Source: a virus. Taken from it: a stretch of 64,000 bases of DNA. The DNA is taken from IMG/VR virus record IMGVR_UViG_3300021961_010841, positions 4,343 to 68,342 of that record, one strand, 5' to 3'. Positions 1,983 through 62,303 of the stretch are shown one piece after another. The first letter of the stretch is position 1. The number at the start of each line of letters is the position of its first letter. Under the pieces are notes generated by a model. That model saw only the letters and a list, made by a program, of their open reading frames with translations, did no database searches and was not told the DNA's origin. The translations under genes and the position numbers were made by a program.

Positions 1983-2010
1983 ATTATAACATATATTTAG
2001 AAAATGTCTA
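1983..2010 (-). promoter_or_regulatory. sigma70-like promoter with embedded TAAATA late box
   Basis: TAGACA-16nt-TATAAT upstream of queE; spacer contains TAAATA. Confidence 0.5.
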
Positions 2011-2466
2011 TACTTCCCACGGATAAACTATCCAACGGGGATCTTTTTCTTTATTGATTTTTTCCGCCCAATAATTCACAGTAAAATGTGAGGGTTCGTT
2101 GTCGATCAATACGGCGTATTCTACATAATGGGCGCCACGATGCAACATGATAGACTGCATCCTTTTGAATGTTTCACCTGTGTCATTGATATCATCCACA
2201 ACCAGAAAGTTGTACTGATCTATGTAAGTGTCGCCAGAGCCGTGACCAACAGGAAAATCAGGAATCATTTCCTGTGCATGGTCTCTGGTAGATAGTTTGA
2301 CAGGAATCATTGGTATGTCGAGTTTGTGTGAAATTATGGTTGCTGGTATGCACCCACCACGTGATATGCCTATGACGTGAGTGAACAGTTTGGGTTCAAC
2401 TAAATCAGCCAGGAACAGCGACATGGTTTCAATCTGTTTCCAAGTATAGTATTTTTTATCTGCCAT
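2008..2466 (-). CDS. purine phosphoribosyltransferase (Gpt-like)
   Basis: GISRGG, PRPP loop [13 protein letters not shown]-terminal WIVYPWE. Confidence 0.88.
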
Positions 2467-3499
2467 TACCGAACACCGTGTTTACTTGATTGTGCACCTG
2501 TACGAATGTGGTACACTTGGGAATATCTTTTAATCTTTTGGCACCTATGTATGTGCAAGTGGACCTTAAACCACCCAAATAGTCCGTGATAACGGTCTCT
2601 ACAGCACCCTTGTGGGGTATCGACACTACTTTGCCTTCAGAACCACGATATGAGTGTCTGCCACCATGTGTTTCCATGGCCTTGTCTGAACTCATGCCAT
2701 AAAAAGTGACTCGACCATCTTGAACGGTTGCTTCGGACTCGTCTGTGCCCGCCAACATGCCACCCAACATCACAAAGTCAGCACCACCACCGAATGCCTT
2801 GGCAATATCACCTGGCACTGTGCAACCACCATCTGCTATGATGTGTCCGCCAACTCCATGAGCTGCATCAGCACATTCGATCAAACCCGACAGTTGGGGC
2901 ATGCCCACTCCTGTCATCAATCTTGTGGTGCACACAGATCCAGGACCAATGCCACATTTGACAACATCACAGCCATCGATGATGAGTTCTTCGACCATCT
3001 CTGCTGTGATCACATTACCGGCCACAATGATTTTGTCTGGATATTCGTCTCTGACTCGTTTGACAAAGTCCACAAAGTTCTGTTGATAGCCATTGGCAAC
3101 ATCGATGCAGATCCAACGAATGTCTGGATATGCTGATAAAACTTTTTTCATGGTGTCATAGTCTGGTGCTTCCTGATTGTATTGATAGGCAGAACCGGTA
3201 CAGATCATTACATTCTTTAATTTTAGTCCTGTCTTGACTGCCTGATGCCAGTCATCAACTGTGTAGTGTTTCCTGATTGCTGTGAGTAAATTGTGTTTTT
3301 GCAGTGCCTTGGCCATTGTGAATGTGCCAACGCCATCCATGTTGGCCGCAATGATGGGAACACCCTGCCACTTTTGTGTGGAGTGTTTGAATTCAAAATC
3401 CCTTTCTAATTCAACATTTTTGCGTGATGTGAGTTGTGAACGTTTGGGTCTGAATAGGACATCTTTGAAATCTAATTTGATATCTGATTCTATTCTCAT
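2456..3499 (-). CDS. guaC: GMP reductase
   Basis: [52 protein letters not shown]. Confidence 0.95.
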
Positions 3500-4182
3500 C
3501 TTGGTGCAAACTCTTGCTGTAATTTGATGTTGTCCATAAATTCTTTTTTAGTAGCCGAGTCATTATTGAAAGCACCTTTGAGCACAGTGGTTTGTGTAAG
3601 ACTCGAATGAGCCATTATGCCTCTGTTCTCACAACAACCATGAGTTGCTTGGATGTACACACCGACGTTTTTAGAACCAGTTGCCTTCATTATTTCTCTG
3701 GCTATGTCGTTGCATAATTCTTCTTGCAGTGTGCCACGTCTTGCACACCATTGAGCGATTCTTGTGTACTTGCTCAAACCAATTAGAGTGTCTGCGGCAA
3801 TTATTCCAATGTATGCAACACCACTTACGGGCTGATGATGATGTGAACACACGGATCTCAGTTCAGATCTGACAACCAACATTCCGTCATAACCGTCATC
3901 GACATGGTTAGGAAACGCAGTTGCATTTGGCATAGGAAAGTATCTGCCTTGCATGAGTTCATTCACATACATCTTGGCCAATCTTCTGCCTGTGTCCTGG
4001 GAATTTGGATCTGTTTCACGATCGATGATGAGTGAATCTAAAACAGATTCAAACTTGCCTGTTAGTTCATCGATCAATTGTTGATGTTCACCTTCGCGGA
4101 TGTGTTGTGAAATGTTATCACCTGCCCAAAATCTGTCGCCGGATGATTCTATTCTTTGCTTGATTGTGTCTGATATGCTCAT
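3496..4182 (-). CDS. folE: GTP cyclohydrolase I
   Basis: [25 protein letters not shown]. Confidence 0.93.
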
Positions 4183-5243
4183 TCTTCTATTATACTTTCT
4201 GCGATTGCGTCATACAAGTTAAATCCGTGGAAAAATTCTGTTTGTAATTTTTTACGTTGCCTTGCAATTTCTGTGAGATATTTAGAATAATTTTCCATCA
4301 AGTCAACGATTCTGTCCATAATTTTTTGTTTGTTTTTTTGATAATTCTTCATGTCTTTTGTCCACACACTTGGATATTTCATTGTGTCAAGGAACATCTC
4401 TGTGTATGACAGTCGATCTGGTACCATCACCATGCAGTCAAGTATCAATCCTTCATAGCCTGATATGCCCAGTGTTTCTTGTAGATTCGCTGAAAACACC
4501 AGTTTGGATTCTGCCAGTAGATTGTGATATTCGTGTTTCTTGAGTTGGCGTTCCTGACACACGATAAAATCATACTGTGGCAGTGCTTCTTTTAGATCAT
4601 AGAATATTTCTGGTTGCTTCTCTGGCGCCAAACGATGTGGAAACACAATTTGATTCTTTTTGGGCATTCCCTTGTATGGTTCCAACTCTTTGTCAAAGTA
4701 TTCCATGGGCCAACCTGTTCTCACTACATTTGGTTGATTGTATTCAATATTAAAGAATGCCTTATCCCACAGTTTGATGTGAAAGTCTGTGGCATAAAAA
4801 TTGTGATCATAACAGTTGAACATGCTGATTTCTGCTTGCCTCACCCATTTAGCATCACCAATCAGTCTGCCCAAAAAGTCTGCAGGGTCATATGAGCCAG
4901 CGTGCCACATGCCACCAATTTTAATCTTTACACCCAACAGTTCTGCCATGTATTTCAATTGTATCACAGTGGGATTCCAGGCATCTGTGTACAGGAAGTA
5001 ATCACCATCTTTGATCTTACCAGCACAGAACATGGTTGCAATTTGTTCGAGTTGTTTGGATTTGTACACATTGGTGCCACCAAAGTTTAGGAAAGCACCT
5101 GGAGTGGTTGCCTGCGGAGTTTCACCACCTGATATAGTGACCACTTTGTGACCTGTGGATTTCTCCAGCTGTGGTGGCAGATACTTCTTCCATTCTGCGG
5201 TGTAACGAGTTTCCACTGCTTCAATGTCTACAATGTAAATCAT
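4179..5243 (-). CDS. glycosyltransferase (GT-B/GT4-like)
   Basis: FPHRLAPEKQP and ETLGISGYEG (E-x7-E) motifs; start moved to ATG 5243, which overlaps the upstream stop. Confidence 0.75.
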   Translation of the reverse strand: MIYIVDIEAVETRYTAEWKKYLPPQLEKSTGHKVVTISGGETPQATTPGAFLNFGGTNVYKSKQLEQIATMFCAGKIKDGDYFLYTDAWNPTVIQLKYMAELLGVKIKIGGMWHAGSYDPADFLGRLIGDAKWVRQAEISMFNCYDHNFYATDFHIKLWDKAFFNIEYNQPNVVRTGWPMEYFDKELEPYKGMPKKNQIVFPHRLAPEKQPEIFYDLKEALPQYDFIVCQERQLKKHEYHNLLAESKLVFSANLQETLGISGYEGLILDCMVMVPDRLSYTEMFLDTMKYPSVWTKDMKNYQKNKQKIMDRIVDLMENYSKYLTEIARQRKKLQTEFFHGFNLYDAIAESIIEE

Positions 5244-5542
5244 CCGTGTATGCTGTCCTCCGCCGCAACAGTTGTATATCTGGTTGAAAGATATGTTAAT
5301 AACTTTTTGTCTTTCACTGAAAAACATACTTCATCACAGCCTGCGTCCTCAAAGTAGAAGTCCACACCATACTCATAACCCTTGCGACCCAAGTCATTTG
5401 ACACCATACAGCCAACATCGAAGTCTGTGTAGTTGCCGTTGAGAGCGCCACCCTCTGTGTCATAGTATCCACCACGTTCTGTGGTTTTGTCGGATGCTAT
5501 CACAATGGTGTGTTCAAACTTGTAAGGTCCTGGATTGCTCAT
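5240..5542 (-). CDS. hypothetical protein
   Basis: ORF coupled at both ends within the operon. Confidence 0.65.
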   Translation of the reverse strand: MSNPGPYKFEHTIVIASDKTTERGGYYDTEGGALNGNYTDFDVGCMVSNDLGRKGYEYGVDFYFEDAGCDEVCFSVKDKKLLTYLSTRYTTVAAEDSIHG

Positions 5543-5745
5543 TTCACACTCCTTTTGTTGGATTCCATGTTGTTAACGAACACCCTAACCAGTCTTGAAA
5601 CATCAACTTCTTCTCTTTGCAGAGTTTTTGGATTGGTAAAGATAACTTTACTTTTGTTTGCTTCAAGTTGTATACCTATGTTGGAAGCAACAACAATAGC
5701 ATCATCTGTGTTTTTACGCCAATCATGTGAAGAATAAACTGTCAT
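5539..5745 (-). CDS. hypothetical protein
   Basis: ORF coupled at both ends within the operon. Confidence 0.65.
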   Translation of the reverse strand: MTVYSSHDWRKNTDDAIVVASNIGIQLEANKSKVIFTNPKTLQREEVDVSRLVRVFVNNMESNKRSVK

Positions 5746-6182
5746 TAGTTTATGATACTCCTTACCTGTTCGTCTATCTTTTTAAAGAATGATTTGTTAG
5801 AAGGTTGATCCTCTTCTTTTGGATAGTCGATATCACAACCATTTTCGCCATCCTCCGACACTTCGATTTTGATATGTCTGCCAGGATATCTTGTTTTGAT
5901 CTGTTGTGCCAATGCATCAGCGATCATTTCGCAAGATTTATAGTCCAATTCCAATGTCTTTTCGCTGTATAACTTTTCGAGCCATCTTTTGAATTGAATG
6001 AATTCTATATCTCTATCATCATGGAAGACCTCGATCCACACCTTAAAATGGAATATGTGTCTGTGCGGGTATCCTAAAAAAGACACGTCGTATTCGTCGC
6101 CAGTCTTTAATTTGGGATCTTCCAGTGCCGCAGGATATTTGTGAATGCCTTCCTTCTTAAATGTTACCCATATTGTTTTCAT
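5745..6182 (-). CDS. QueD/PTPS-fold protein, HRH variant (DpdL-like)
   Basis: EGIH...LGYPHRHIFHF...DIEF...SCE...VSEDGENG T-fold motifs; LxxxHRHxF instead of CxxxHGH; start at ATG 6182. Confidence 0.75.
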   Translation of the reverse strand: MKTIWVTFKKEGIHKYPAALEDPKLKTGDEYDVSFLGYPHRHIFHFKVWIEVFHDDRDIEFIQFKRWLEKLYSEKTLELDYKSCEMIADALAQQIKTRYPGRHIKIEVSEDGENGCDIDYPKEEDQPSNKSFFKKIDEQVRSIIN

Positions 6183-6691
6183 ATCGTTGTGTCGTCTCCG
6201 TATTTGTCCCAAGCAGTGTAGTTCTTTTTCTTCATCATGTCTTTCACAGACCAACACCACACACCTGGATTTGTTGCTTTAAAGTCCTTGTCATCGATCT
6301 TGATGACCACATTGCCTTGAATATTGTTTACATTTTCCACTGTGACACCATACACAATGGTAAACTTGGAATATGACAGTAGATCGGTGATGTCTGTAAA
6401 CTTGTAGTCTGGATTCATATCTATGGTCACATGATAATCTCTGTCTAAAAAGTATCTGAGTTGTGATGCGATCGATTGTACTTCTTGCCCATCCATGACT
6501 TTGTATGAATGATTGGCACCAAAGTAGATGTGTTTGCATGAATTTTTTTCTGCGTTTCTCAGCACAGTGGCAGTTCTCTGCAAGTCAACCACAAACAGAG
6601 TTTTCATACCTTCTGTGGGTGTTTTTTCTACTTCTTTACCGACAAAAAATGTGGCACCTTCTTTTACGCCATCATGATAATCACGTTTCAT
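6179..6691 (-). CDS. hypothetical protein in deazaguanine operon
   Basis: 170-aa coupled ORF; HIYFGANHS and DFKATNPGVWC stretches look conserved. Confidence 0.75.
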   Translation of the reverse strand: MKRDYHDGVKEGATFFVGKEVEKTPTEGMKTLFVVDLQRTATVLRNAEKNSCKHIYFGANHSYKVMDGQEVQSIASQLRYFLDRDYHVTIDMNPDYKFTDITDLLSYSKFTIVYGVTVENVNNIQGNVVIKIDDKDFKATNPGVWCWSVKDMMKKKNYTAWDKYGDDTTI

Positions 6692-6956: not shown

Positions 6957-8417
6957 TTAAACCTCCTCGAATAAATTATTAAACTGTGTTGACGCATTTA
7001 CTGTTTTTTTGCCTGTTGCACCCCTGGTTCCTATAATACTCATCCAATATCTCGAATACTCTTCTATTATAGCATCTGCTACGGATCTGTCATCCGTTGA
7101 AAATATCGCTTCCACAATATCACGGAACATCACTCGATCGAATGATTCGTTGATCAACATGTTTGGTATTTTACCAGCATCATACTGTCTGTTGGCTTCC
7201 TGCACTGCGTTGATGTGCATCCAAACATTGTGGCCCATCATGATGGCATATGAAAATGAATCCCATGATGTCTTGCCTTCTTTACCAATCTTGTTGAGAT
7301 CACCCGCACCATAAATGCAGATGTCCTTGGCAGTGAGTCCTGTGGTGATGGGTGAATTCATAAAACTTGTGTGCTTGCCTTCTCTCACAAATGCTTCTGA
7401 GAATGGGGTTTTGTCCTGGGCAAATGCTTTGTTGTCGATGGATGGAACCATTCTGTACACCCATTTTTCACGATCATTGGTTTCCAATTCACAGTAGATT
7501 TGTCCGTTGGCTGTGGCCAAAAATGGAGATGCACAGTCGAACGTTACTGTGTAATTTGGATTGTGATGTTTTCTGACTGCTCGTTGGATGTCTGTGAGCA
7601 GTGTGGCCCATTCCAGTTTTGATGTGCCAAGGAAGTGCATGAAGTCATGTTTGCCTTTTTCCAGCAGTCCGTCAAATCTTAGTGCCACTAATCTTTTCAA
7701 CACAAGGTGCACATCACACATGTTCTGTCCGCCCATGGACCAACCGTTGAAATGTGTTTCGGGATATTTCTTGGGATCACAGTAGTCTTTCATCTGCTCA
7801 TACCAATCGTCAGCATCAGCATGATTTTCACCCTGCAACACATTTAAAAATCTACAAGAACCTGTACGATTCTTCATGAAATAATCGTTGTTGATCCTTG
7901 TGGCATTGACGGCATCCTGATAGTTGTCTATGCCAGTTGCTTTGGCGCCTGCTGGTGAACGAGCCACCCAGGCCGGAATATCAAGTATCATACCGTAGTC
8001 CATGTAAGCATCCATCCACGCAAGAACCTGCTCACGTTTCTTTTTAGCCTTGGGACAGTTAGGATCTTTCCAATCACCTTCCCAAACACCCTTACCTATT
8101 TGGAAACCACCTGAGTCGCCGAGTAGCCAAGATGATGATCTATCACGATTGCGGATCATGTCTTCCTTAGGAGAATCTCTGTTGATGTCGAGATCGGCGT
8201 GACCCGCTGAGTACAATGTCCAATTGTATTGGAACAGTCCTTGTTGGGGGTTGAGCCAGTTCAAACTTTCAACGCCATTTGTAAAATGTTGAGGAATTCG
8301 AGAGTTGTCTACATATTCCTCATGACGTTGTTTGCCTACGAATGTAGCAAAGAATCCACTCAGTGCTGGAAGAAACACAGCATAATCTTTTTGTTCAGCA
8401 GTGAGGTTGGTATTCAT
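6957..8417 (-). CDS. dpdA: DNA deazaguanine transglycosylase, DpdA/TGT-like
   Basis: TGT-fold motifs GDSGGFQ, ILDIP, NVLQG, MHFLG, TFDCAS; neighbours folE and queE. Confidence 0.82.
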   Translation of the reverse strand: MNTNLTAEQKDYAVFLPALSGFFATFVGKQRHEEYVDNSRIPQHFTNGVESLNWLNPQQGLFQYNWTLYSAGHADLDINRDSPKEDMIRNRDRSSSWLLGDSGGFQIGKGVWEGDWKDPNCPKAKKKREQVLAWMDAYMDYGMILDIPAWVARSPAGAKATGIDNYQDAVNATRINNDYFMKNRTGSCRFLNVLQGENHADADDWYEQMKDYCDPKKYPETHFNGWSMGGQNMCDVHLVLKRLVALRFDGLLEKGKHDFMHFLGTSKLEWATLLTDIQRAVRKHHNPNYTVTFDCASPFLATANGQIYCELETNDREKWVYRMVPSIDNKAFAQDKTPFSEAFVREGKHTSFMNSPITTGLTAKDICIYGAGDLNKIGKEGKTSWDSFSYAIMMGHNVWMHINAVQEANRQYDAGKIPNMLINESFDRVMFRDIVEAIFSTDDRSVADAIIEEYSRYWMSIIGTRGATGKKTVNASTQFNNLFEEV

Positions 8418-9155
8418 CTACTTGGTTTGTGCTGGTAGGATGTATTGATATGAAGCCATTCCTGAATCAAGTGTGATTTGCAGTGCACCATCATCTGAGA
8501 ATGACATCTCACATTCATTAGATTCAATCAATTTTAGAATCTGTGTGACCTGTGCCACTGGCCATGCCCACGTCTTTGTGAGTTTGCCTGTGATGCCTTT
8601 TGCAAATGTAAATTCACCTGCGTGTGATGAAGCATCTCCGAACTTGAATTTGAGTGCATCACCGTCTGTTGACACAGTGAACACATTTTCTTCTGCGTTC
8701 GCTTGTGCTTGGAAGTTTAATCTCTGCACATCTGGCATGGTTGGCTTGATAGTGACATGCCAATTCACACCCCTGAACTGCACAGATTTTAATTTTTCAC
8801 TGACAATTTCAGCATTCATGAAGCGATAGTCGTTTTTAAAATCTTTGGAATCGTTCTCAAAATGCAATCCTACGGGCACAGTTTCGTTGTTGCGTTCCTG
8901 TGTGTTGACTGTGATTTCTGCTTTGTCTTTGTACACCGGAAGTTTTAACAGGATATCGAGTTTGCCCAAGTTTGGCATACCGAACGTTCCCTTCCATTCA
9001 CTCACTGGTGTCTTTAATTCTGATTTGACCACAACAGATCTGTCTTCCGCCATGGCATCTATTGTTGTTGATTTGTCGTCACCCACCACCTTCACAAGGT
9101 CTATGAAACCGAGAGAATGAGTGTGCTTGACGATGTCTTGTAGTGTATCTTTCAT
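8418..9155 (-). CDS. sliding clamp (gp45-like)
   Basis: 245 aa, beta-rich, immediately downstream of the polymerase, ends YQYILPAQ. Confidence 0.7.
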   Translation of the reverse strand: MKDTLQDIVKHTHSLGFIDLVKVVGDDKSTTIDAMAEDRSVVVKSELKTPVSEWKGTFGMPNLGKLDILLKLPVYKDKAEITVNTQERNNETVPVGLHFENDSKDFKNDYRFMNAEIVSEKLKSVQFRGVNWHVTIKPTMPDVQRLNFQAQANAEENVFTVSTDGDALKFKFGDASSHAGEFTFAKGITGKLTKTWAWPVAQVTQILKLIESNECEMSFSDDGALQITLDSGMASYQYILPAQTK

Positions 9156-9179
9156 ACTGTGTATCTCCTAAGTGTTTTT

Positions 9180-9208
9180 ATTATAGAATTATTTAGAGCT
9201 AAAGTCAA
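9180..9208 (-). promoter_or_regulatory. sigma70-like promoter with embedded TAAATA late box
   Basis: TTGACT-17nt-TATAAT upstream of the clamp/dpdA operon. Confidence 0.65.
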
Positions 9209-9210
9209 CT

Positions 9211-11847
9211 CTAATTAAACAATTTGTCAAAGGTATTTTCTGCTTCGGAATTGCCAAGATTCCAATCCAAAACACCGATGAGGTTTTCTAATTTTTTGTT
9301 GATAAGAGTTGATTCCATTTCGTCATCTGCGAATGGTAACTCTTTGAACCAATCTGGTATTCTCAGTTCATCTGTTGGATATGCGATAGATGTGTACCCC
9401 ATGGGATTGTCCTTGAGTTTACACACGATGCATTTTTGGCCATCGATGATGTCCATGGAATACTTGTCGTTGTAAACCTTTTTGAGGGTGTTCCAATTGA
9501 TGGCCGCTCTGACATGTCCGGGCATGTTGATCTTGCCTTTTCTCTTTTCACGTGAATGGTATTCAGTGAGTTTGTTCACACGACGTGGGGAGCCTTTCTC
9601 CCATCCTGGCATCTTTTTGAATTCCAAACGGAAGTCTGCGATGAAGTCCATGACTTCTTCTTCGGTCTTGCCGGTCAGCACCATGTCCAACACATCTGAT
9701 AGGAAATCCTGGATGTATGCGGGTGTGTCCGAACGTTTTAGATCTAACCCCATGGCTTTGATCTTGTCCACGGGTTCGCCTTCGAGATCGTATATCTTCA
9801 TGGCATATCTTTTCTTTGTGATAAACAGTCCCTTTGATCCCACTGCTTCTCTACCGCCCGCAATCAGTTTGCCATATGTGCCGGGGCAATTGAATGACTG
9901 TTGCATGAACTTGGGGAAAGACTTGTTGACTTCCGCCGCCACAGAATCATACAGTTGCACAACATTTTCTTTGTTCCACGGAATGTTGCCTGCATCGATC
10001 TCCGATTTGAGTGGTTGATATGCGGAGAAATACACAGAGTCTGTGTCACCATATATTATGGCCGGTCCCTTGTAGTCATACTCTCCACAGATGATCTCGT
10101 TGGTCTTGGATGCCATGTGTCTTGTGATGCATCTTCCTGTGAGTGTGGTTGACTGTCCTATGCGTGTGTCAAAGAATCTACAACCTGGATTTAGGATAGC
10201 ACCATACAGCGAATTTAGATTAATCTTTTTTACAAGTTGTCTTTTATCCCAAAATGCCTGTTCGGTCTTGTTGCCGGCATCGATGGCCTTCTTCCTTTTG
10301 GCTTGCAGTTCCTTACGTTCTGCATACCAGCGTTCTAATAGTCCAGGAATAACTCCTGCAAACTCATGCGTGAATATTGTGCCATTAGCACTCAACATCC
10401 ATGGTTGATCTGAATTGAAAATCAGTTCATGTACTTCAGCGGCACTTAATATGTTTGACTCTCCTGTTTCCCAATCAATGGTTATGCTCTGTGCCCGATC
10501 CTTTCGCATCACTGCTTGATATTCAAGTGAACCAAACTCACCTTCCCAAGCACCCGCGAAGGATTTCTTCTCAATGGTCATCCTGCGTTCCATTTCTTCC
10601 TCTGTGAGTGATTGTCTGAGTTGGCCCACGATGGTTTCCGGAGCCATGTTCAATGCTCTGATCACAGATGGATACAGTGAATTGATGTCGATGGATCCTA
10701 TCCAATCCTGCAGACCCTTCTTGGGATATGCCACATAGGCACCCGCCGCCGGATCCGATCCTGGTTCACGTCTAACACGATCTGGAACTACCATGCCACG
10801 CCTGTGTGCTTCGTTGATGATGCCCTGTTCTGTCACTGCCACAGCACCCATGGTTGTCTGTATTAACACGGTGTTTTGGTGTGCCAGTTCGTTGGACAAA
10901 TCAATAAATCTCAGTTTGGCATCCAACCTGCCCAGCAGTGCCACGTCCTGCCTGTTGTATTCCATGAACTTCACAAAATCTTTGTTGTACAATTGATCCA
11001 GAGTGCCTTCGTATGGGGTCTTTTGTTCACCCAACTCCATCTTGGAAATAAAGTCAAGAGCATATGAATGCCGTTCTTCATAAGTGTATTTCCTGTATAG
11101 TTGCATGTAGTCTAAGTGTACTCTGCCAATGATGTCATATGTGACTTCTTCGTTGCCAAATCTTTCAAATGTTCTCTTGCGTGGATATGTGTTCCACAGA
11201 CACAATCTGCGTGTGTCATCCTTTGACATCACTTTGGAAATCCTGTTCACTGTGTAGGGAATATCAAAACCTTCCGAGTTCCATCCGCTCAGCACATCAG
11301 CATCTTCTATAATTGTGATAAATTTATCCAACATGTCTGCTTCGGATTCACACAGCATGGTGTTTTCAAATTCTTTTTCAATAATTTCAGGATTGGGGAA
11401 ATCCTTGGGTGGTATGGCCAATGATATCAACTGATCCAACCACTGCAGATACACGGTGATAGAAATGATTGGCGCCCAAGCATCTGCGGGTTTGGCATAA
11501 CCCTTGTTGGGATCAAAGTCCACCTCGATGTCAAAGAACGCTACCTGTAGTTCCGGAGCATCCTTGTTGAGGTAGTTTTCCTCCAGACAGCGGAAGATTG
11601 GATTGATGTCCGATTCATACAGACGTTTGCCTGACTGCATGTGGACTTCACGTTTGAATTCCTTGCCCGATTTGGTTGCTATCCTTGACACCGGAGTGCC
11701 ATACACAGATTTAAACTTCCCTTTGGGATCGTCATAGTACGCAACATAGCGAGCAGGATATTCCACATACCGCCTTTCGCCCTTGATCCGTTCGACCACG
11801 GATATCTTGTCCGTGTCTCGATCAAACAGTGCGTCTACGTAACTCAT
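9211..11847 (-). CDS. family B DNA polymerase (gp43-like)
   Basis: Exo FDIE, GWNSEGFD, YNRQD; Pol DINSLYPS, KINLNSLYG, YGDTDS, KKRY. Confidence 0.97.
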   Translation of the reverse strand: MSYVDALFDRDTDKISVVERIKGERRYVEYPARYVAYYDDPKGKFKSVYGTPVSRIATKSGKEFKREVHMQSGKRLYESDINPIFRCLEENYLNKDAPELQVAFFDIEVDFDPNKGYAKPADAWAPIISITVYLQWLDQLISLAIPPKDFPNPEIIEKEFENTMLCESEADMLDKFITIIEDADVLSGWNSEGFDIPYTVNRISKVMSKDDTRRLCLWNTYPRKRTFERFGNEEVTYDIIGRVHLDYMQLYRKYTYEERHSYALDFISKMELGEQKTPYEGTLDQLYNKDFVKFMEYNRQDVALLGRLDAKLRFIDLSNELAHQNTVLIQTTMGAVAVTEQGIINEAHRRGMVVPDRVRREPGSDPAAGAYVAYPKKGLQDWIGSIDINSLYPSVIRALNMAPETIVGQLRQSLTEEEMERRMTIEKKSFAGAWEGEFGSLEYQAVMRKDRAQSITIDWETGESNILSAAEVHELIFNSDQPWMLSANGTIFTHEFAGVIPGLLERWYAERKELQAKRKKAIDAGNKTEQAFWDKRQLVKKINLNSLYGAILNPGCRFFDTRIGQSTTLTGRCITRHMASKTNEIICGEYDYKGPAIIYGDTDSVYFSAYQPLKSEIDAGNIPWNKENVVQLYDSVAAEVNKSFPKFMQQSFNCPGTYGKLIAGGREAVGSKGLFITKKRYAMKIYDLEGEPVDKIKAMGLDLKRSDTPAYIQDFLSDVLDMVLTGKTEEEVMDFIADFRLEFKKMPGWEKGSPRRVNKLTEYHSREKRKGKINMPGHVRAAINWNTLKKVYNDKYSMDIIDGQKCIVCKLKDNPMGYTSIAYPTDELRIPDWFKELPFADDEMESTLINKKLENLIGVLDWNLGNSEAENTFDKLFN

Positions 11848-12059
11848 CCAAATATCATTCCAATGACATATATTACTGTCAATCCTGCATTTAGGACAAT
11901 CAAAGAATTTTCACGCCACAGCACCCCCACTGCTACCCAGATAGAATTGGCAATTATAAACAACCAAACATAAACAGGATACACATTGAAGGCCGCCAGT
12001 GTGGCCGCTGTGATCAGCACTGCGGTGCCCAACCACGCCAACCATTGATAGGGTTTCAT
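11844..12059 (-). CDS. small membrane protein
   Basis: MKPYQWLAWLG..., three hydrophobic segments; start set at ATG 12059. Confidence 0.65.
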   Translation of the reverse strand: MKPYQWLAWLGTAVLITAATLAAFNVYPVYVWLFIIANSIWVAVGVLWRENSLIVLNAGLTVIYVIGMIFG

Positions 12060-12060
12060 G

Positions 12061-12312
12061 CTATATTTTCTTTGCGATGGCAAGAATTTCTTCCAGCTCT
12101 TCGATATCGTGTTTTTCTGATGCCAATGATTCTTTGAATGCAACTGCGATGGCCTTATTGAGCAGAGCGGGTTTGATCTCCAATTCCTCTGCCACTGCTT
12201 TCACAGTGTCTCTCAAACCTTCCGATAGGTCTTGCACTTCTTGTTTTACTTTAATGCCACTTTCGATGACATGTTTCACTTTTGCTTGTTCTTCTTGATT
12301 AAGTGTTTTCAT
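12061..12312 (-). CDS. dsDNA-binding protein (T4 DsbA/GapR-like)
   Basis: Helical 83-aa protein, LRDTVKAVAEELEIKP; sigma70 promoter upstream. Confidence 0.6.
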   Translation of the reverse strand: MKTLNQEEQAKVKHVIESGIKVKQEVQDLSEGLRDTVKAVAEELEIKPALLNKAIAVAFKESLASEKHDIEELEEILAIAKKI

Positions 12313-14157: not shown

Positions 14158-14379
14158 TTATTTGGATTCAACTATGGCCACTATGTCTTTGACTCTAACT
14201 ATGGACTCTGCATGTTGGTCATCGATGGTAATACCAAATTGATCCTCGATGTCCATGATGATTTCTAAGCCATCCAAGCTGTCCGCGCCGAGATCATCCA
14301 CCAAGTGAGATTCCAAAGTAATTTTTGATAGGCTGATACCAAGTCGTTCTGAGATTATGTTAAAAATTTTTTCCTGCAT
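14158..14379 (-). CDS. acpP: acyl carrier protein
   Basis: DDLGADSLD phosphopantetheine site, EDQFGITI; start at ATG 14379 behind TAAATA. Confidence 0.9.
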   Translation of the reverse strand: MQEKIFNIISERLGISLSKITLESHLVDDLGADSLDGLEIIMDIEDQFGITIDDQHAESIVRVKDIVAIVESK

Positions 14380-14386
14380 GGGATAT

Positions 14387-14647
14387 TTACCTTGGATCAT
14401 TTTCACTGCATTCTTTTTTGCATATGCTGTCACATCTTTCTGATTGCCAATCCGCATCGTTGAAGTGATCGGTGTAGGCATGGTGACTTAAAATTTCCTT
14501 GATGCTGTGCAAGGACAGATCGTTCCAATCTTTTGGTAATTTTTTGAGATAATCACTATTGTAGTGTGAATTGGCCACGAAGCAACAAGGCCATAATTTC
14601 TTGTCATACTCTATTACCAAACTCTGGGTTTTGCACTTGATGGCCAT
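14387..14647 (-). CDS. stand-alone SPASM/twitch Fe-S domain
   Basis: C...WPCC...CDSICKKEC. Confidence 0.75.
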   Translation of the reverse strand: MAIKCKTQSLVIEYDKKLWPCCFVANSHYNSDYLKKLPKDWNDLSLHSIKEILSHHAYTDHFNDADWQSERCDSICKKECSENDPR

Positions 14648-15310
14648 TTAAAAGTCCTCCATCCATGCGTTGTACTTGTTGACCAATATGTCCTGTTTTT
14701 CTTGATCTAATATCCAAGGTTCCTCATCATCATCAAACGGAGGTCTCGTGTTCACTGTGAACGATATCTCTATGTTGTGTTGACCTGCAAGACGTTTGGC
14801 ATCATCTACCTGATGATAGTTGTGTGGAAACACTATGAACTGCCATGTCACTTTGCCCATTGGCAGTGACTTGGCGCACGCCAGCATGTTGTTCCATGCC
14901 TTGTCGAAATCTACTTTCTTCCTGTAGATGTCATTTACTTCAGCGGTGGTGCCATCGATGCCGAACACGAACTCGCAATGATCACCGTATTTGGCACAGT
15001 CGGAGAACCATTCTTGTTTCCTGATGGCGCCATTGGTGTGTATTCTAAAATTTAATTTTTTTCCGAACACCAGGTAGTCCAGTATTTCATCGAGGTGTGG
15101 ATTCATCAATGGATCTCCATAGTCACCGCATATCCTTATGGTCTTGATAGTGTCGGGGAGGTCTTGGCAAATTTTCTCAAAATCATTTTTGTCTATGTGA
15201 AGCAGTCTAAGATTATCTAATCGGAAAGTCCTGTCGCACAACGGACACTCTGCCTGGCAATAACTTGTTATGCCAACTTCCAGTTCGGAACTAAAATTTT
15301 GCCAATCCAT
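14648..15310 (-). CDS. radical SAM protein
   Basis: CQAECPLC, GDYGDP, HTNG, FGIDG. Confidence 0.88.
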   Translation of the reverse strand: MDWQNFSSELEVGITSYCQAECPLCDRTFRLDNLRLLHIDKNDFEKICQDLPDTIKTIRICGDYGDPLMNPHLDEILDYLVFGKKLNFRIHTNGAIRKQEWFSDCAKYGDHCEFVFGIDGTTAEVNDIYRKKVDFDKAWNNMLACAKSLPMGKVTWQFIVFPHNYHQVDDAKRLAGQHNIEISFTVNTRPPFDDDEEPWILDQEKQDILVNKYNAWMEDF

Positions 15311-15313
15311 GGA

Positions 15314-15565
15314 CTATTTGGTCTTGACGTTCTTTGCAGGGCCTTGTCTGTTCTTGTTGGGATCTTCTCTGCGTTTGCGTGATGCCGCTGTGGCTCTGCC
15401 TTTTTTGCCCAGTGCGTGTGCTTTGGATTGTGGCAGACATTTGGGTTTGCCTTCTGAAGAAGAACCCCTGGCACAGTCGCCACGGATCTTGCCGTCAGGA
15501 CCAAACCTTACCCATTTTTCCTTAAACCATTTTTTGAGATTTTCGTCTATTTCGTATAACTTCAT
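15314..15565 (-). CDS. small basic two-Cys protein (MKLYEIDE...)
   Basis: Start at ATG 15565 coupled to upstream stop; LKKWFKEKWV...DC...PKCLP. Confidence 0.75.
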   Translation of the reverse strand: MKLYEIDENLKKWFKEKWVRFGPDGKIRGDCARGSSSEGKPKCLPQSKAHALGKKGRATAASRKRREDPNKNRQGPAKNVKTK

Positions 15566-17175
15566 TACTTGCTCTTGTTGCCCCAGTTGGCCGCGCCTTT
15601 TTTGCGACACTGCACCAGAGCACCAGAGGCATAAGCTGAAGGCCATACTTTGTATCTTGCTTTTACTTTATGATAGCAGGCATCCTTTTTGCCTGCCGCT
15701 TCGTCAAATTCTTGTTCTGTGATTGCTTTAGATTCTGCGATGGCTTCATTTAAATCTTTGACAGCATCAACATGTCCTTGCACATATGAATGTTCTGATT
15801 CCAATCCCATCATGCCCGCCATGGCCATGATTTGATCAGCTAGATTCTGCATCATAGCAATGTATTCTGGTTCTGCTTTTTTCATTTCCATGGCATGCTT
15901 TTCCATGTAGAATAGCGTGTCATGTAGTTTGGCAGAACGCTCAGCTAAGTCCATATCCTCAACATCAATGTCTTTGTATAATTGTGTGGCTGAAGGACAA
16001 ATATCAAAATGTTTGGTTTGGTATGAACCTACCATCACTTCACCTTTGTCGTCATCTTCTTTGACCTTTTCTTTTTTCTCATCTGATGAGTGTCCAAAAT
16101 ATTTGTGTACCAACCGGTCTAATTCTGTGTGAAAATTGTCGATTGTCTTTTTTGAAACTTGTTCCAGTGTGTGTTCTTCACCATCTGATGTTTTGAACTT
16201 GGTGCCTTTCTTGGCGCCTGTGGCTTTGAGTTGTCTCACCTTTTGTGCAAACTCATTGCCTTCTTCTATGATGAGTCCCAGTTCATCCAACTTGTCTACC
16301 AACCACACATATGGATCACCATCACGTGCTTTTTGTGTGCCGTATGGCATCATGTCGTCAGCATCTGATGATGAGAAGTAAGCAAATAATTTTTCATATA
16401 TGGTTGGAGCATCCATTAGATCTCCTGTGTCCATGAACTTTTTGTATTCGTCTTGATGTTGTTGAATAATCATTTGAGCATAGCCACGATCTTGATGTTC
16501 GTCTTCATACATAGAATTTAAAGTTTTGCTTTTGCCTTTGCCAAGGAAACCTGTGGCGCCCATGTTTTGTTTGAACCGTTCTGCCGCATCTGGTTCAGCA
16601 AAATCCATACCGTCTTGTTGTAGGATGGCTTTGATTTCAATGGGATTCATGTTCAACATCTTTGACATGGCAGAAAATATTTCGTCCCAATCCATGTCTG
16701 CTTGTGTGCCTGAAGCAAACATTGTTGAAATCAATTCATGGAATCCAGGTGACTGTTTGATTTTTTCCAGTGACGTAGAATCTTGACCCATAGGGTTAAT
16801 CAGTTTAGTGAATTGGTCTTTTACATCCTCGCCCACAGCATCCTTGTCCATTCTTCTGCGTTCTTTGTTGGCATCTTTTTTAATCTGTTTCTTAACCACA
16901 TTCATTGCTCGCTTGGTCAAAACTTCTGGTTTGGCATCTCTTCCTTTTTGTGTGGGCACATCCTGTTCACCTATTAATTTTTGTATGATTCGATTTTGAG
17001 CAATTTTTGGATTTTGCTCTGCTATTTTAATTAAAAAATTTCGTGGCATTAGTCCTCTGGCTTTGGCCATCTCTCTGATGGTTTTTTCGAGATCGAACAG
17101 TTTTCCTTGTTTGTTTGATTCCTTTGGTTGCTTGTTTTTCTCGAGTTCTATAAGAATATTTTTTAGTATGCCCAT
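15565..17175 (-). CDS. modular late protein, probable internal head protein
   Basis: TATAAATA at 17182-17189; modules separated by x-x-E sites; C-terminal KKDACYHKVK...VQCRKK module. Confidence 0.75.
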   Translation of the reverse strand: MGILKNILIELEKNKQPKESNKQGKLFDLEKTIREMAKARGLMPRNFLIKIAEQNPKIAQNRIIQKLIGEQDVPTQKGRDAKPEVLTKRAMNVVKKQIKKDANKERRRMDKDAVGEDVKDQFTKLINPMGQDSTSLEKIKQSPGFHELISTMFASGTQADMDWDEIFSAMSKMLNMNPIEIKAILQQDGMDFAEPDAAERFKQNMGATGFLGKGKSKTLNSMYEDEHQDRGYAQMIIQQHQDEYKKFMDTGDLMDAPTIYEKLFAYFSSSDADDMMPYGTQKARDGDPYVWLVDKLDELGLIIEEGNEFAQKVRQLKATGAKKGTKFKTSDGEEHTLEQVSKKTIDNFHTELDRLVHKYFGHSSDEKKEKVKEDDDKGEVMVGSYQTKHFDICPSATQLYKDIDVEDMDLAERSAKLHDTLFYMEKHAMEMKKAEPEYIAMMQNLADQIMAMAGMMGLESEHSYVQGHVDAVKDLNEAIAESKAITEQEFDEAAGKKDACYHKVKARYKVWPSAYASGALVQCRKKGAANWGNKSK

Positions 17176-17181
17176 GTAAAC

Positions 17182-17247
17182 TATTTATAATATTGCAATT
17201 AACACCTGTATTTTTGAATAGACAAAAAACACAAAAATAAGTATAAT
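17182..17247. promoter_or_regulatory. divergent promoters: late (minus) and sigma70 (plus)
   Basis: Minus TATAAATA 17182-17189; plus TAGACA(17219)-17nt-TATAAT(17242). Confidence 0.7.
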
Positions 17248-17254
17248 ATACACA

Positions 17255-17746
17255 ATGAAATATGCAATAACAGGCCATACGGGACTGGTCGGTGGATTCT
17301 TATACAACAATCTTGGTGACTGCGTGGGATTCAGCAGATCCAACGGATTTGATGTCACTGATGACGATGCACAAGATAGGATAATTCTTGAATCCTACAA
17401 GTGTGATGTGTTCGTCAATTGTGCCCATGCAGGGCCAGGCACATCTCAGACAGACATGTTGTGGAAGGTTTACAAACGCTGGAAAAATCACAACAAGCAC
17501 ATCATCAACATAGGCACTGACAGGGCATCGCCTCATCTGTGGAGCACGGTCAGACAGGACTATCCTTTGGAAAAATCCATATTGGCCACCACAGTTGATC
17601 ATATCCAGAAACAGCACATCGGCAAATGCAAGGTGTCCATAATAAATCCCAACGTGATTGAAAATGACACATTGGTGGACATACTCGGAGCGGTCAAATA
17701 CATTGTGCAGAGCAGAACTTACATCACCACCGTAAACTTACAATGA
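17255..17746 (+). CDS. short SDR/NAD(P)-binding Rossmann protein
   Basis: AITGHTGLVG, DVFVNCA, IINIG, YxxxK (YPLEK). Confidence 0.75.
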   Translation: MKYAITGHTGLVGGFLYNNLGDCVGFSRSNGFDVTDDDAQDRIILESYKCDVFVNCAHAGPGTSQTDMLWKVYKRWKNHNKHIINIGTDRASPHLWSTVRQDYPLEKSILATTVDHIQKQHIGKCKVSIINPNVIENDTLVDILGAVKYIVQSRTYITTVNLQ

Positions 17747-18429
17747 TATTCTGTCCTATAGATCTTCCACCCATACCCAACAAGCAATCTATAATCGATG
17801 CCTTCGAGGGCGATGAATCATACGCATATTGGAATTTGGAAGTTTTGCTGGGCAACGGTGAAAATGGCATACGTGACAAGAGCATACCTTTCGGTCCTCC
17901 TGGTACATGGAGCCCTTTCGCCAAGAAGTATCCGGATCTCATAGGTTGGATGGAGCAACATCTTCCTTATGAGTATTTTTGTTATGTGACCATCGGTAGG
18001 AGCCAGTCGGATGTTTGGCCGCACGTGGATGGTTGTGAGTCGTCTTTCGACAGTGATGTGAGACTGAGGCACCATACAACCATGGAGCAATGGTTGGTCG
18101 ATCATCATGTAAACAACGAACCTTCGGGTTACAGATTGATAGTGTCGGGATCACGTGACAAGCTCTATCTCTGCAAGGATTATGATCCCACCTTCAAAAA
18201 CAAAAGCATACTCCAACAACCAAAAACATACACATATGTTCCTGATGACACAGATGTCTACGCAATAAGCCATCAATCACAGCCCCACGGAGTGGACATA
18301 GACGAACAAGAAAAAAAGGAAAGATTGACTGTGTTTGTGATGGGCAAAGTAAATATCGACCAACACCAAGAACTCTTGACAAGAAGCAAAAATAAGTATA
18401 AAAAGTATACAGTAGATCATGTTAATTAG
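17743..18429 (+). CDS. putative oxygenase/cupin-fold protein
   Basis: PHVD...PHGV...ERLTVFV. Confidence 0.55.
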   Translation: MIFCPIDLPPIPNKQSIIDAFEGDESYAYWNLEVLLGNGENGIRDKSIPFGPPGTWSPFAKKYPDLIGWMEQHLPYEYFCYVTIGRSQSDVWPHVDGCESSFDSDVRLRHHTTMEQWLVDHHVNNEPSGYRLIVSGSRDKLYLCKDYDPTFKNKSILQQPKTYTYVPDDTDVYAISHQSQPHGVDIDEQEKKERLTVFVMGKVNIDQHQELLTRSKNKYKKYTVDHVN

Positions 18430-19147
18430 AAAAAAATATCAATTACCGAGCGTTGCACCCATACCGGGCAAGTCATTTGACATCCAAAAACTGCAAGAAG
18501 AAGTTGTAAGATTGGACCAAGAATGGGTCAGTGTGTTCCAGGCCAACAGGGGACTTTGTTCAAACCATCTGGAACTGGCAGAATCTAACTATGAGCACTT
18601 TAGACAGATAAATCTCACATACTTCGAGCCAAGCCTCAACGATGTGTTGGATTTGGATGATCTTAAGACGGAATGCAGGCTACAGGCCAACAACGTGTTG
18701 GAAGGGCAAAGGAAGACAGTGAAGTACAAGACCAAAGTTTTCCGTGACGAAAAGTTACCTCCCGCGATGAACGAACACAACTGGTATCATCCTTTGCCAC
18801 TTTATCAAAATTCATACATCAAGGAAGCCATAGAATCTCAGTTCAAATCCACTCCCATAAGAGTAAGGCTTTCGAGAATCACTGCTGGCAAATTCCTAAC
18901 ACCACACATCGACTACTGCCCTTCCTACGCAGTGAGGGTTATAGTTCCTATACAGGGGACAACGAATGTGGTCAACAAGGTTTGGCGCAGGGGTGTGGAA
19001 GAGTCATATGAAATGCCAGCGGATGGTAGAGCATATTTCCTCAACACAGGTTTCAAACATTCTGTGGAGCACGGTGGTTCAGAAGATAGAATTGCACTGA
19101 TGTTCAGTCTGCCTGACCAAAGAGACATTCAGGAACTTAATTTTTAG
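18419..19147 (+). CDS. aspartyl/asparaginyl beta-hydroxylase-like 2OG-Fe(II) oxygenase
   Basis: RVRLS...PHID...FLNTGFKHSVEH...DRIALM. Confidence 0.78.
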   Translation: MLIRKKYQLPSVAPIPGKSFDIQKLQEEVVRLDQEWVSVFQANRGLCSNHLELAESNYEHFRQINLTYFEPSLNDVLDLDDLKTECRLQANNVLEGQRKTVKYKTKVFRDEKLPPAMNEHNWYHPLPLYQNSYIKEAIESQFKSTPIRVRLSRITAGKFLTPHIDYCPSYAVRVIVPIQGTTNVVNKVWRRGVEESYEMPADGRAYFLNTGFKHSVEHGGSEDRIALMFSLPDQRDIQELNF

Positions 19148-19784
19148 AATAATTTTTAACGTATTCGTCGGAAGCAAAACTCCATCCGGTCACGCAGGGT
19201 CTGTTGCCACTGCATGGTTCGACCATATGTGCCAATCCAACTCTCATCACTACACACTTGTTCTTTTGTGGTTTGATCGACAACGGACCTGCAAATCGCA
19301 CTTGAACTTTTTGCATCATTTCGCTGAATCCTTCTGTCATCATTTCCATGCACTGTGTTTTGTCTGGTATCACAAGGTCACCATCGGGTTCGTCGGACAG
19401 GTACAGCATGAAAACTACATCACCGAACAATTCAGGTGATTCTGTGTGTAGATCATACTTGCTCACCTTGGGATTAAATGTTTTGAAAAAATAGTTCAGT
19501 GGTGAAAGATCTTTTGTGAGTGCAGTTTTGCCAAGCACAGGCTCGTACAGTGTGTTTAATTTGTCTATTATATAAGTCCTATACTCCTCGATGTGTCTGA
19601 GATCGTTCAGCACATTGTAATTGTAGTAAGTTTTTCCAACCAAGTGTTTGGCATCCGCACCATCCAAAGTTTTTCCTTGCGTGTTTGACATTTGAACAAG
19701 TATTTCATCCACCATCTCATCTGGTAAAAAGTCGTCACACTGCCATATCTCGTTGGATATGATCTCTTGCCAATTATCTTTCAT
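19137..19784 (-). CDS. 2OG-Fe(II) oxygenase
   Basis: LHTE...MLYLSD..GDL...HMVEP...R.CVTGW; start at ATG 19784. Confidence 0.7.
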   Translation of the reverse strand: MKDNWQEIISNEIWQCDDFLPDEMVDEILVQMSNTQGKTLDGADAKHLVGKTYYNYNVLNDLRHIEEYRTYIIDKLNTLYEPVLGKTALTKDLSPLNYFFKTFNPKVSKYDLHTESPELFGDVVFMLYLSDEPDGDLVIPDKTQCMEMMTEGFSEMMQKVQVRFAGPLSIKPQKNKCVVMRVGLAHMVEPCSGNRPCVTGWSFASDEYVKNYSKN

Positions 19785-21552: not shown

Positions 21553-22154
21553 TGTAAGATTTCTTCCACTGGTATGTCTTGCCCTGTGTGGTTGTGTTTT
21601 ATCACAGATTTGATAGGATTCCATGTGTATTTTGGATCTATGTAGTATGAGTATATGAACTGCAACATGTCTGACTTGGGCGAATCATGAAACAACAAAT
21701 TTGTTTCCAACTTTAGTTGTACATAGTCTTTGTCATCGAACCATTTGTCATCTTTGGTGAACACATATCTCCTCTTGTGTTGGTACAGACTATTCTTTGC
21801 TTTGTCCTTGACGTCGCAGGTCCAATAGTAGTGCTTGTAACCCTGTTGCCTTCCCCATTCGATCTGCTTCTTCATCATCTTGAACCCATATCGACCGTGC
21901 CTGTGGGCCTTGAGGATGTGATATCTGCAAGCTCTCAACGATTCGGGAGTACCCGTTATGTGGCTTTCCTGTGCGTACGAAACGCTGACGACCTTGCCAT
22001 CGACCACAGCCATCCATATGCTACCTTGGATGTTGTCCAGGTCCATTTTGTTCTTGTAGAATGTTTGTTCACTGCCTTCCTTCATGGCCTGTGCCACAAA
22101 CTCTGTGATGTGTGATTTCCAATCAGGACTATACTGTATGATCTCTTCGGACAT
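21537..22154 (-). CDS. GNAT-family acetyltransferase-like protein
   Basis: VDGKVV and HRHGRYG acetyl-CoA motif A-like. Confidence 0.6.
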   Translation of the reverse strand: MSEEIIQYSPDWKSHITEFVAQAMKEGSEQTFYKNKMDLDNIQGSIWMAVVDGKVVSVSYAQESHITGTPESLRACRYHILKAHRHGRYGFKMMKKQIEWGRQQGYKHYYWTCDVKDKAKNSLYQHKRRYVFTKDDKWFDDKDYVQLKLETNLLFHDSPKSDMLQFIYSYYIDPKYTWNPIKSVIKHNHTGQDIPVEEILQCEYS

Positions 22155-22186
22155 TTAACAATTATAAACGATTTAGTTGGATATTT

Positions 22187-22441: not shown

Positions 22442-22445
22442 ACTG

Positions 22446-22646: not shown

Positions 22647-22662
22647 TTAATATATTTACTGT

Positions 22663-23646: not shown

Positions 23647-23650
23647 ATTT

Positions 23651-24322: not shown

Positions 24323-24338
24323 TGCTATAATTATATGT

Positions 24339-62283: not shown

Positions 62284-62303
62284 CAAGATATTATAACAGA
62301 GTC

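Follow-up and report, generated by a model that had tools for sequence, protein, structure and literature searches.

A polymerase-type C-terminal tail on a phage DpdA-like transglycosylase as a probable docking peptide for the sliding clamp

Tethering of phage proteins to a sliding clamp through short C-terminal peptides has been described for T4 and its relatives. The C-terminal peptide of the RB69 DNA polymerase gp43 is bound to the clamp gp45 in structure 1b8h (PMC3012046; this and all other papers are cited from excerpts), and the C-termini of gp43, gp55 and gp33 were called 'highly similar hydrophobic and acidic' and described as interchangeable (PMC2988020). The closest precedent is the T4 alpha-glucosyltransferase, a DNA-modifying enzyme which binds the phage's own gp45, co-purifies with it and has been proposed to modify DNA alongside replication (PMC13216743, citing Sommer et al. 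2004). Here, a similar arrangement is proposed for a DpdA-like enzyme of the TGT (tRNA-guanine transglycosylase) superfamily, encoded in a window of 64,000 nucleotides (bases 4343-68342 of a single virus record of 68,342 bases, IMGVR_UViG_3300021961_010841), a fragment from a marine giant phage. The enzyme bears a C-terminal tail of the same type as that of the neighbouring polymerase, and this tail is rather likely to be a clamp-interacting peptide of polymerase type, by which the enzyme would dock onto the PCNA-like clamp of the phage. A first-pass annotation of this DNA had suggested that the transglycosylase hooks onto the clamp in this way and had cited the gp43 peptide on gp45, a precedent that structure 1b8h bears out; the suggestion itself gained support from the conservation of the tail, its free position in the monomer model and the docking model.

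Polymerase-type tails on clamp clients are already known, and so is the binding of phage DNA-modifying enzymes to a clamp. What is new is a base-exchange client of DpdA type, together with a tail that copies the tail of each phage's own polymerase. The T4 alpha-glucosyltransferase glucosylates 5-hydroxymethylcytosine, whereas base exchange is predicted for the enzyme of the window, and we know of no polymerase-like terminal peptide in the former. The main DpdA papers, in the excerpts available, describe insertion as 'post-replication' and are silent on a clamp ('clamp' occurs 0 times in the available text of PMC10516641, and 'sliding clamp' 0 times in the DpdA papers listed), and among the papers listed by a full-text search, judged by title and abstract and with subscription journals and supplements outside it, none connects DpdA with a clamp; at that level, the remark in the first-pass annotation that clamp tethering is undescribed for DpdA holds. 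Protein folds, disorder of the tail, conservation of its motif, its link to clamp genes and a docking model were computed, and all computational tests available lent support to the predicted clamp docking.

A C-terminal tail common to polymerase and transglycosylase

Three adjacent genes on the minus strand are concerned, in the order polymerase, clamp, dpdA-like, an order that had been given before and was confirmed from the positions of the open reading frames (ORFs). They encode a family B DNA polymerase (PolB) of 878 aa (9211-11847; Pfam DNA_pol_B, 9.2e-34, DNA_pol_B_exo1, 7.6e-19, and phrog_262, 3.6e-197), a sliding clamp protomer of 245 aa with a predicted PCNA fold (8418-9155), and the DpdA-like transglycosylase of 486 aa (6957-8417), assigned from its predicted fold and invariant residues. 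The ATG of the latter abuts the stop codon of the clamp ORF. The polymerase is 43-49% identical to those of the jumbo phages Phosso, Atu_ph07 and 121Q.

The C-terminus of PolB (NSEAENTFDKLFN) ends in ENTFDKLFN (TFDKLF-N), and its motif F873-D-K-L-F877 (9217-9231, minus strand) stands one residue ahead of the stop codon, placed as in the clamp-binding tail of RB69 gp43. The 486-aa protein ends in QFNNLF-EEV on a disordered tail (IIGTRGATGKKTVNASTQFNNLFEEV; GTRGATGKKTVNASTQFNNLFEEV). This tail (residues 463-486; 6960-7031, minus strand) consists of a basic stretch, GTRGATGKK, followed by QFNNLF and then by EEV, and contains the putative clamp-interacting core F479-N-N-L482-F483 (6969-6983, minus strand), as delimited by the tail profile of homologues and by the complex model. 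Both endings, ENTFDKLFN and STQFNNLFEEV, had been read in the first-pass annotation exactly as they appear in the ORF translations. The linker GTRGATGKKTVNA had been called flexible; it is indeed predicted to be disordered, residues 465-479 of the AF2 model having pLDDT <50 and a short helix following at 479-482, but within the close clade its sequence is conserved, with G463, T464, R465, G466, G469, K470, N474 and A475 invariant (22 sequences, 72-86% identity). Packing of the tail into the TIM barrel, envisaged in the same annotation as a contrary outcome, was not seen in the monomer model.

A short hydrophobic-acidic motif at a disordered terminus, preceded by a variable linker and common to the polymerase and another candidate client, likens this system to gp43, gp55 and gp33 of T4 and RB69, and the predicted pocket on the clamp is the same. 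Unlike these clients, which are a polymerase and transcription factors, the putative client is here a DNA base-exchange enzyme; in addition, the fold of the clamp resembles PCNA more than any Pfam gp45 model, and the core is FxxLF in place of the T4-type SLDxLF seen in ACP17-like phages. Tethering of a DNA-modifying or repair enzyme to the replication clamp by a short motif in a disordered end is the same concept in PCNA clients with a PIP box, such as DNMT1, UNG2 and FEN1, and in clients of the bacterial beta-clamp carrying QL[SD]LF. Unlike PIP-box clients, the present system is wholly phage-encoded and its motif lies off the consensus: neither QFNNLF nor TFDKLF matches the canonical Qxx[LIM]xx[FY][FY] (quoted in PMC3012046), and both would work like a PIP box of a non-canonical kind.

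Within this genome alone, the shared motif was weakly above chance. In a test on 100 ORFs (21,990 aa) and 2000 shuffles, the narrow pattern F-polar-polar-L-F occurred twice, at the C-termini of PolB and of the DpdA-like protein, and at least two ORFs with this pattern were obtained in 0.1% of the shuffles, the pattern having been defined after the data were seen. The broad pattern [FYLM]xx[LMF]F was found in the last 16 residues of 2 ORFs for a shuffle mean of 1.9, so that this genome alone proves little; the significance of the shared motif comes from the comparison of homologues and not from a single genome. Other clamp clients with the motif at their C-terminus were sought among the 100 ORFs and none was found. 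An acidic ORF of 78 aa (57248-57484, minus strand), ending in DDDQFDDLINVN (..DQFDDLINVN), carries a different motif and might be a gp33-like small clamp client.

A first set of loci from IMG/VR provided 150 DpdA-like ORFs of at least 380 aa (125 after dereplication), in which the broad pattern was sought in the last 70 residues, and 771 other ORFs of at least 200 aa from the same loci as controls. The pattern was present in 91 of the 125 dereplicated tails versus 38 of the 771 control ORFs, and in 42 of the 48 DpdA-like ORFs of a second locus set. The form xF[NDS]xLF recurred at the ends of homologues sharing 30-60% identity, while the preceding linker varied, and a profile anchored on 89 homologue tails had F or Y at position 0 and F at +4 in all 89, L at +3 in 85 and E or D at +5 in 73 of them. 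Polymerase tails in related loci displayed [FLM]xx[LMF]F in 74 of 75 dereplicated cases, mostly with an acidic residue and F behind it, and both kinds of tail had a common core, T/Q-F-polar-polar-L-F-acidic. In a relative of 256 kb with 284 ORFs, the polymerase and the DpdA-like protein were the only ones to carry the narrow motif in their last 40 residues. A mere chance resemblance, with no shared function, agrees with the broad-pattern count in the window, but its enrichment over control ORFs, its retention while the flanking linker varies and the 256-kb relative, where no other end is of this kind, make it very improbable, and it can already be considered as disfavoured.

In 61 of the 89 motif-bearing tails (L018, L020, L021, L027 and many more), FxxLF lies 24-34 residues from the end and is followed by an acidic extension ending in a conserved D-E-[TS]-K-L-E-x-L-E-like motif, which is not found in the protein of the window and may act as a further docking peptide, for a different partner. 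Extensions of this length hint at further functions of the tail, and are one of the grounds for supposing that it acts within the enzyme or on its turnover (dimerisation, autoinhibition or degradation tag), in which case it would resemble the polymerase tail through convergence on a generic hydrophobic-acidic ending. TGT enzymes are dimers (PMC6884629), and the broad motif, with two hits in this genome, is at chance level. However, the tail is disordered and unpacked on the barrel in the monomer model, tail-less homologues keep the catalytic core, and the tail type matches that of the own polymerase in two remote DpdA lineages, all of which renders such an internal role improbable.

The first-pass annotation had proposed to compare tail conservation between DpdA homologues next to clamps and others. 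The tail proved to be conserved in distant homologues and to track the clamp gene, which was usually the immediate neighbour of the motif-bearing DpdA-like gene. In the first set, 90 ORFs with the motif and 15 without it had a clamp gene in their locus, versus 1 with and 19 without the motif when no clamp gene was found; the corresponding numbers in the second set were 41 and 6 versus 1 and 0. Thirteen of the 19 ORFs lacking both clamp and strict motif, located on very large contigs, ended in LF-type variants such as GLFDF. Four of their records, complete genomes of 435-480 kb, had the DpdA-like gene far from the replication genes, with tails (GLFDF, GLFA, GLFEL and DVFA) outside the strict pattern; these genomes encode the same clamp elsewhere (E 1e-55 to 1e-61), together with a polymerase ending in TTFNDLF[ST]F. 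For the truly tail-less homologues L082, L089 and L095, no clamp match was found in their records, all three incomplete and two classed as proviruses. Among bacterial genome contigs, a single distant relative was detected (L162, 26% identity), without tail and with no clamp match in the locus and its 8-kb flanks. In a tree of the catalytic part, motif-bearing tails were confined to two well-separated clades and tail-less proteins to other clades; the counts of motif and clamp cannot be taken as independent events because of this clustering by descent.

The sliding clamp, predicted docking and identity of the enzyme

The 245-aa protein had no match in Pfam or NCBIfam, nor among all PDB chains with phmmer, and its only match in PHROGs was phrog_12062, a family of unknown function. 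Its AF2 model (pLDDT 88.8, pTM 0.87) retrieved PCNA entries throughout the Foldseek matches listed against PDB (best E 8.6e-12, TMq 0.62-0.73), and the two-domain fold of the predicted protomer identifies it as a PCNA-type clamp. Homologues occur in PA5oct-like, Phosso and 121Q-like jumbo phages, some of them annotated as PCNA or sliding clamp. An AAA+ ATPase of 310 aa (52832-53764, minus strand), similar to clamp-loader large subunits, matches clamp-loader families (Pfam AAA, 4.2e-15, DNA_pol3_delta2, 1.7e-10, Rad17, 1.2e-5, and Gp44_lid, 8.4e-5, the last below cut-off), and the phage thus has its own clamp-loading system.

A complex was modelled from three clamp copies and enzyme residues 457-486, both supplied as alignments, in three runs and with three controls. 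The ipSAE values were 0.69, 0.70 and 0.68 for the runs and 0.00 for all controls, including one in which the clamp was replaced; in the calibration of the tool, whose counts hold only roughly here, 116 of 157 solved complexes attained the mark, compared with 2 of 215 mismatched pairs. The runs shared at least 74% of contacts with a partner pLDDT of at least 55, and the three clamp copies folded together with a pLDDT of 91. Confident contacts of the tail involved residues 473-479 and 481-486, with F479, L482 and F483 in the pocket, while the hydrophobic YWMSII stretch, which was also supplied, fell outside the predicted interface. On the clamp, contacts were made by residues 38-40, 42, 123-130 (interdomain connector), 157-158, 197, 199, 222-224 and 239-245 (C-terminal strand); 13 of these 26 residues are invariant in the clamp alignment, versus 75 of 245 overall. 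PIP-type peptides bind PCNA under the interdomain loop and against the C-terminal strand. Structure prediction of the clamp trimer with the DpdA peptide, a check advised beforehand, hence placed the tail in the canonical pocket, with ipSAE 0.69 against 0.00 for the best control.

According to this model, the catalytic barrel would be followed by a disordered tail ending in Q478-F-N-N-L-F483, of the same type as T-F-D-K-L-F of the polymerase, and one protomer would receive this peptide in a hydrophobic pocket, beneath the interdomain connecting loop and next to the C-terminal strand. Enzyme and polymerase could be borne side by side on the trimer, or clamps left on the new duplex may serve the enzyme; by either route, base exchange would be focused on phage DNA that has just been replicated. 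Real binding and its timing relative to the fork are what we infer from these computations.

The partner of the tail being deduced by computation, another hub of the replisome (clamp loader, single-strand-binding protein or helicase) might recruit polymerase and transglycosylase alike through the shared tail. Other tails of short-linear-motif (SLiM) type do exist in such phages: the helicase of phage 9g ends in DFDDDIPF, the C-terminal tail of E. coli SSB. Moreover, in solution the preferred site of the T4 gp43 tail is a second one, at the open subunit interface of gp45 (PMC2988020), so that the behaviour of such tails is not a simple matter. Nevertheless, recruitment by a different hub appears unlikely, though less so than a role within the enzyme, as the motif tracks the clamp gene, usually its immediate neighbour, the tail is docked in the canonical clamp pocket with a score of 0.00 once the clamp is replaced, and the position of the polymerase motif matches the solved RB69 case. 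Docking on the clamp itself is accordingly the preferred reading.

The identity of the enzyme could not be read from sequence libraries. The 486-aa protein had no match in Pfam (including the TGT model), NCBIfam or PHROGs, and phmmer against all PDB chains returned 0 matches; a profile of 60 sequences of its family yielded only noise against PDB (best E 1.3). It missed the gathering score of PF01702, which was matched by 2 of the 60 family members (best E 0.043). Known phage DpdAs (9g, ACP17 and phiST) are likewise without a Pfam match at E <=0.01, and the Pfam test is thus a weak one. The AF2 model (pLDDT 93.2) pointed to TGT enzymes in all 50 Foldseek matches listed against PDB (best E 2.4e-7, TMq 0.35-0.43). 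With VIA-align, which is independent of Foldseek, the five best representatives all belonged to the TGT superfamily: Z was 19.2 for ArcTGT, 18.4 for QTRT2, 17.3 for TGT, 14.8 for Cap10 and 16.2 for the DNA preQ0 insertase DpdA 7ui4 (rmsd 4.2, 293 residues aligned), versus at most 11.8 for unrelated TIM barrels. Among 60 homologues (27-62% identity), D101, S102, G104, D146 and D294 were invariant and G103 and Q106 nearly so, D101 being the aspartate of the conserved D-S-G-G-[FY]-Q motif; D101, D146 and D294 are presumably the equivalents of the TGT catalytic residues. By its predicted fold, the protein is clearly a remote member of the TGT/DpdA superfamily, and the label 'DpdA' given in the first pass agrees with this fold although sequence libraries miss the protein.

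A TGT-type barrel, D-S-G-G and 7-deazaguanine gene neighbours are shared with the established DpdA families, i.e. 7ui4, DpdA1 of 9g, DpdA2 of nt-1 and ACP17-like phages, DpdA3 of phiST, and DpdA4 (PMC10516641, PMC6884629). From profile comparisons, the family appears only remotely related to these named subfamilies: hhalign gave a probability of 96.4% over 179 columns with ACP17 DpdA, and of 62.6% (E 7.2e-5) over 82 columns with phiST DpdA3 (CGPG_00065), which has 259 aa compared with 486 aa for the protein of the window, itself devoid of a Pfam TGT match. Searches by tblastn with phiST DpdA3 gave no match of PA5oct type and did not reach Campylobacter phage CP220, a fully modified T4-like case. 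An exhaustive search of representatives at 50% identity yielded 991 homologues of the 486-aa protein at E <=0.001. The DpdA-like family is very abundant in marine metagenomes: 7871 of 8000 candidates scored belonged to it at the same threshold.

The 7-deazaguanine gene cluster and the remainder of the window

Several genes on the minus strand downstream of the trio point to 7-deazaguanine synthesis. FolE (GTP cyclohydrolase I) is encoded at 3496-4182 (Pfam, 8.2e-39), and a QueE-like radical SAM enzyme at 1080-1976, whose matches to the QueE models of NCBIfam (1.7e-10 to 1e-5) all stay below the cut-offs and which is 35% identical to the annotated QueE of PA5oct. DpdL is a proposed CDG decarboxylase with the signature LxxxHRHxF (Cui, Hutinet and colleagues, PMC10516641); this signature fits LGYPHRHIF in the DpdL-like ORF at 5745-6260, which by tblastn is 62% identical to its counterpart in ACP17, 57% to that in PA5oct and 36% to phiST DpdL. 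M27 at 6182 is probably its true start, sharing an ATGA overlap with the stop codon upstream. An unnamed protein of 382 aa (4179-5327), without match in Pfam, PHROGs or NCBIfam, is 43% identical to EST35_0317 of PA5oct and 39% to gp124 of ACP17, both of which adjoin DpdA and DpdL, and its similarity marks it as a conserved unnamed member of a module of the 7-deazaguanine (dDG) type. The same module is carried by PA5oct and ACP17. In PA5oct, the order is polymerase (split by a homing endonuclease), clamp, small ORF, DpdA-like gene, homologue of the 382-aa protein, DpdL, QueE and RNase H, and a system for the synthesis and incorporation of deazaguanine had already been noted in this phage by Iyer and colleagues (PMC7824862).

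DNA is inferred to be the substrate of the 486-aa enzyme only from the FolE, QueE and DpdL neighbours and from the occurrence of this module in PA5oct and ACP17 as well. Most likely, the enzyme would replace guanine of phage DNA with a 7-deazaguanine that the products of these neighbours provide, and the base would, by analogy with phiST, be 7-deazaguanine itself (dDG). Also within the cluster, 2008-3499 (minus strand) encodes a GMP reductase (NF003470, 528 bits for a cut-off of 397) and a small phosphoribosyltransferase (Pfam, 7.6e-12), which, as a speculation, might salvage or dispose of the guanine freed by base exchange. A 170-aa ORF at 6179-6691 (minus strand) is 27% identical to ACP17 gp122, located just before ACP17 DpdA.

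The region had no megablast match among GenBank phages. The record is a fragment, since the 256-kb relative was itself rated 72% complete by CheckV. Two small membrane proteins of family DUF6552 (1.5e-14 and 1.1e-9) are encoded on the minus strand, at 757-1080 adjoining the QueE-like gene and at 11844-12143 just upstream of the polymerase gene. The NTPase domain of DNA polymerase III alpha (PF07733, 6.5e-11) was found in a 179-aa ORF at 56088-56627 (minus strand), in keeping with the minimal, split Pol III alpha that has been described in 'group 2.2' jumbo phages (PMC7824862). Across 14158-24391, 50105-51265 and 61216-62286, radical SAM/SPASM enzymes were unusually many (five), accompanied by an acyl carrier protein, GNAT, 2OG-Fe(II) oxygenases, DnaJ, ATPase and co-chaperonin-type proteins resembling ClpB and GroES, respectively, and peptide deformylase; this set of radical SAM, chaperone and oxygenase genes is typical of a large marine jumbo phage.

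Distribution of the tail in other phages and its implications

Relatives of ACP17 DpdA, which is remotely related to the family of the window, are found in T4-like phages, and here too DpdA and polymerase have similar endings: ..TTLDELFE and ..PSLDDLFE in ACP17, ..NSLDDLFG and ..SSLEDLFGW in Moby, ..QSLEELFG and ..SSLESLFG in X1, and ..ASLDSFFD and ..STLDDFFS in BUCT-ZZ01, respectively. A gp45-slide_C match was obtained in all four phages, above the Pfam cut-off in two and below it in the other two. On the basis of these endings, the type of DpdA tail appears to follow that of the own polymerase, being FxxLF in the family of the window and SLDxLF in T4-like phages. In phage 9g (L285; 36-3960 and 9945-11948), the DpdA1 prototype, the genes are arranged as polymerase, 'replicative clamp' and DpdA, and DpdA ends in ..RLQDLFDE, its relatives (39-100% identity) ending in HDLFD, Q[DE]LF, QRLF, PGLF or QGFF. 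The clamp of 9g has no Pfam support and the case is a lead resting on the record's own annotation.

A number of observations weigh against clamp docking or its consequences. Polymerase tails had an aromatic residue at +6 in 69 of 74 cases (F in 67, W in 2), which is mostly absent from DpdA-like tails. The strict motif was missing in 15 of 105 clamp-linked homologues of the first set and 6 of 47 of the second, most of which keep a degenerate aromatic version; six of them (L113, L115, L125, L128, L147 and L148) have tails of the form ..ITGMDADNxxxMEMEDF, devoid of LF, in spite of clamp and polymerase genes nearby, which could represent a different docking peptide or a loss of docking. The score of the complex may reflect memory of the many solved PCNA-peptide complexes, and the model indicates a pair resembling a clamp and its client rather than binding itself. 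The pathway and the identity of the base are guesses, and a scan of 79 distinct ORFs in the 68-kb record detected neither QueD nor QueC, an absence that means little because this record is a fragment. Among T4-like phages, KVP40 DpdA2 is without such a tail and that of pf16 is degenerate (TLDLMCA). In phiST, a phage reported as fully modified (PMC10516641), DpdA3 (259 aa) is tail-less and a clamp was not detected, and the tail is thus not needed for complete replacement. Finally, clamp binding was confirmed for the T4 alpha-glucosyltransferase, but expression level, and not clamp binding, was the main determinant of the share of modification (PMC13216743, 2026).

A broader interpretation is that copying the own clamp-binding peptide onto DpdA is a general solution, evolved repeatedly in at least three remote lineages with different clamp types, i.e. 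FxxLF on PCNA-like clamps, SLDxLF on gp45 (ACP17, Moby, X1 and BUCT-ZZ01) and possibly the 9g-type Queuovirinae. The tail would then decide on the completeness of guanine replacement, insertion would be co-replicative rather than 'post-replication', and tail-less DpdA2 of the nt-1/KVP40 type would give only traces. This generalization is tentative and clearly less probable than docking of the present enzyme. The extent of 7-deazaguanine modification in phages ranges from <0.1% to 100% of guanines, for a reason given as unknown in the available text of PMC10516641. No modification was obtained in E. coli with DpdA3 or DpdA4 enzymes, nor with the dpdL-dpdA pairs from phiST and ACP17 (PMC10516641), and it may be speculated that the tail explains these failures. 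The tail also offers an experimental handle, through peptide binding, tail swaps and tail deletions. A clamp-docking tail would represent a concrete mechanism by which a base-exchange enzyme is brought to all newly made phage DNA and, if true, would sharpen the description of insertion as 'post-replication' that is current in the field.

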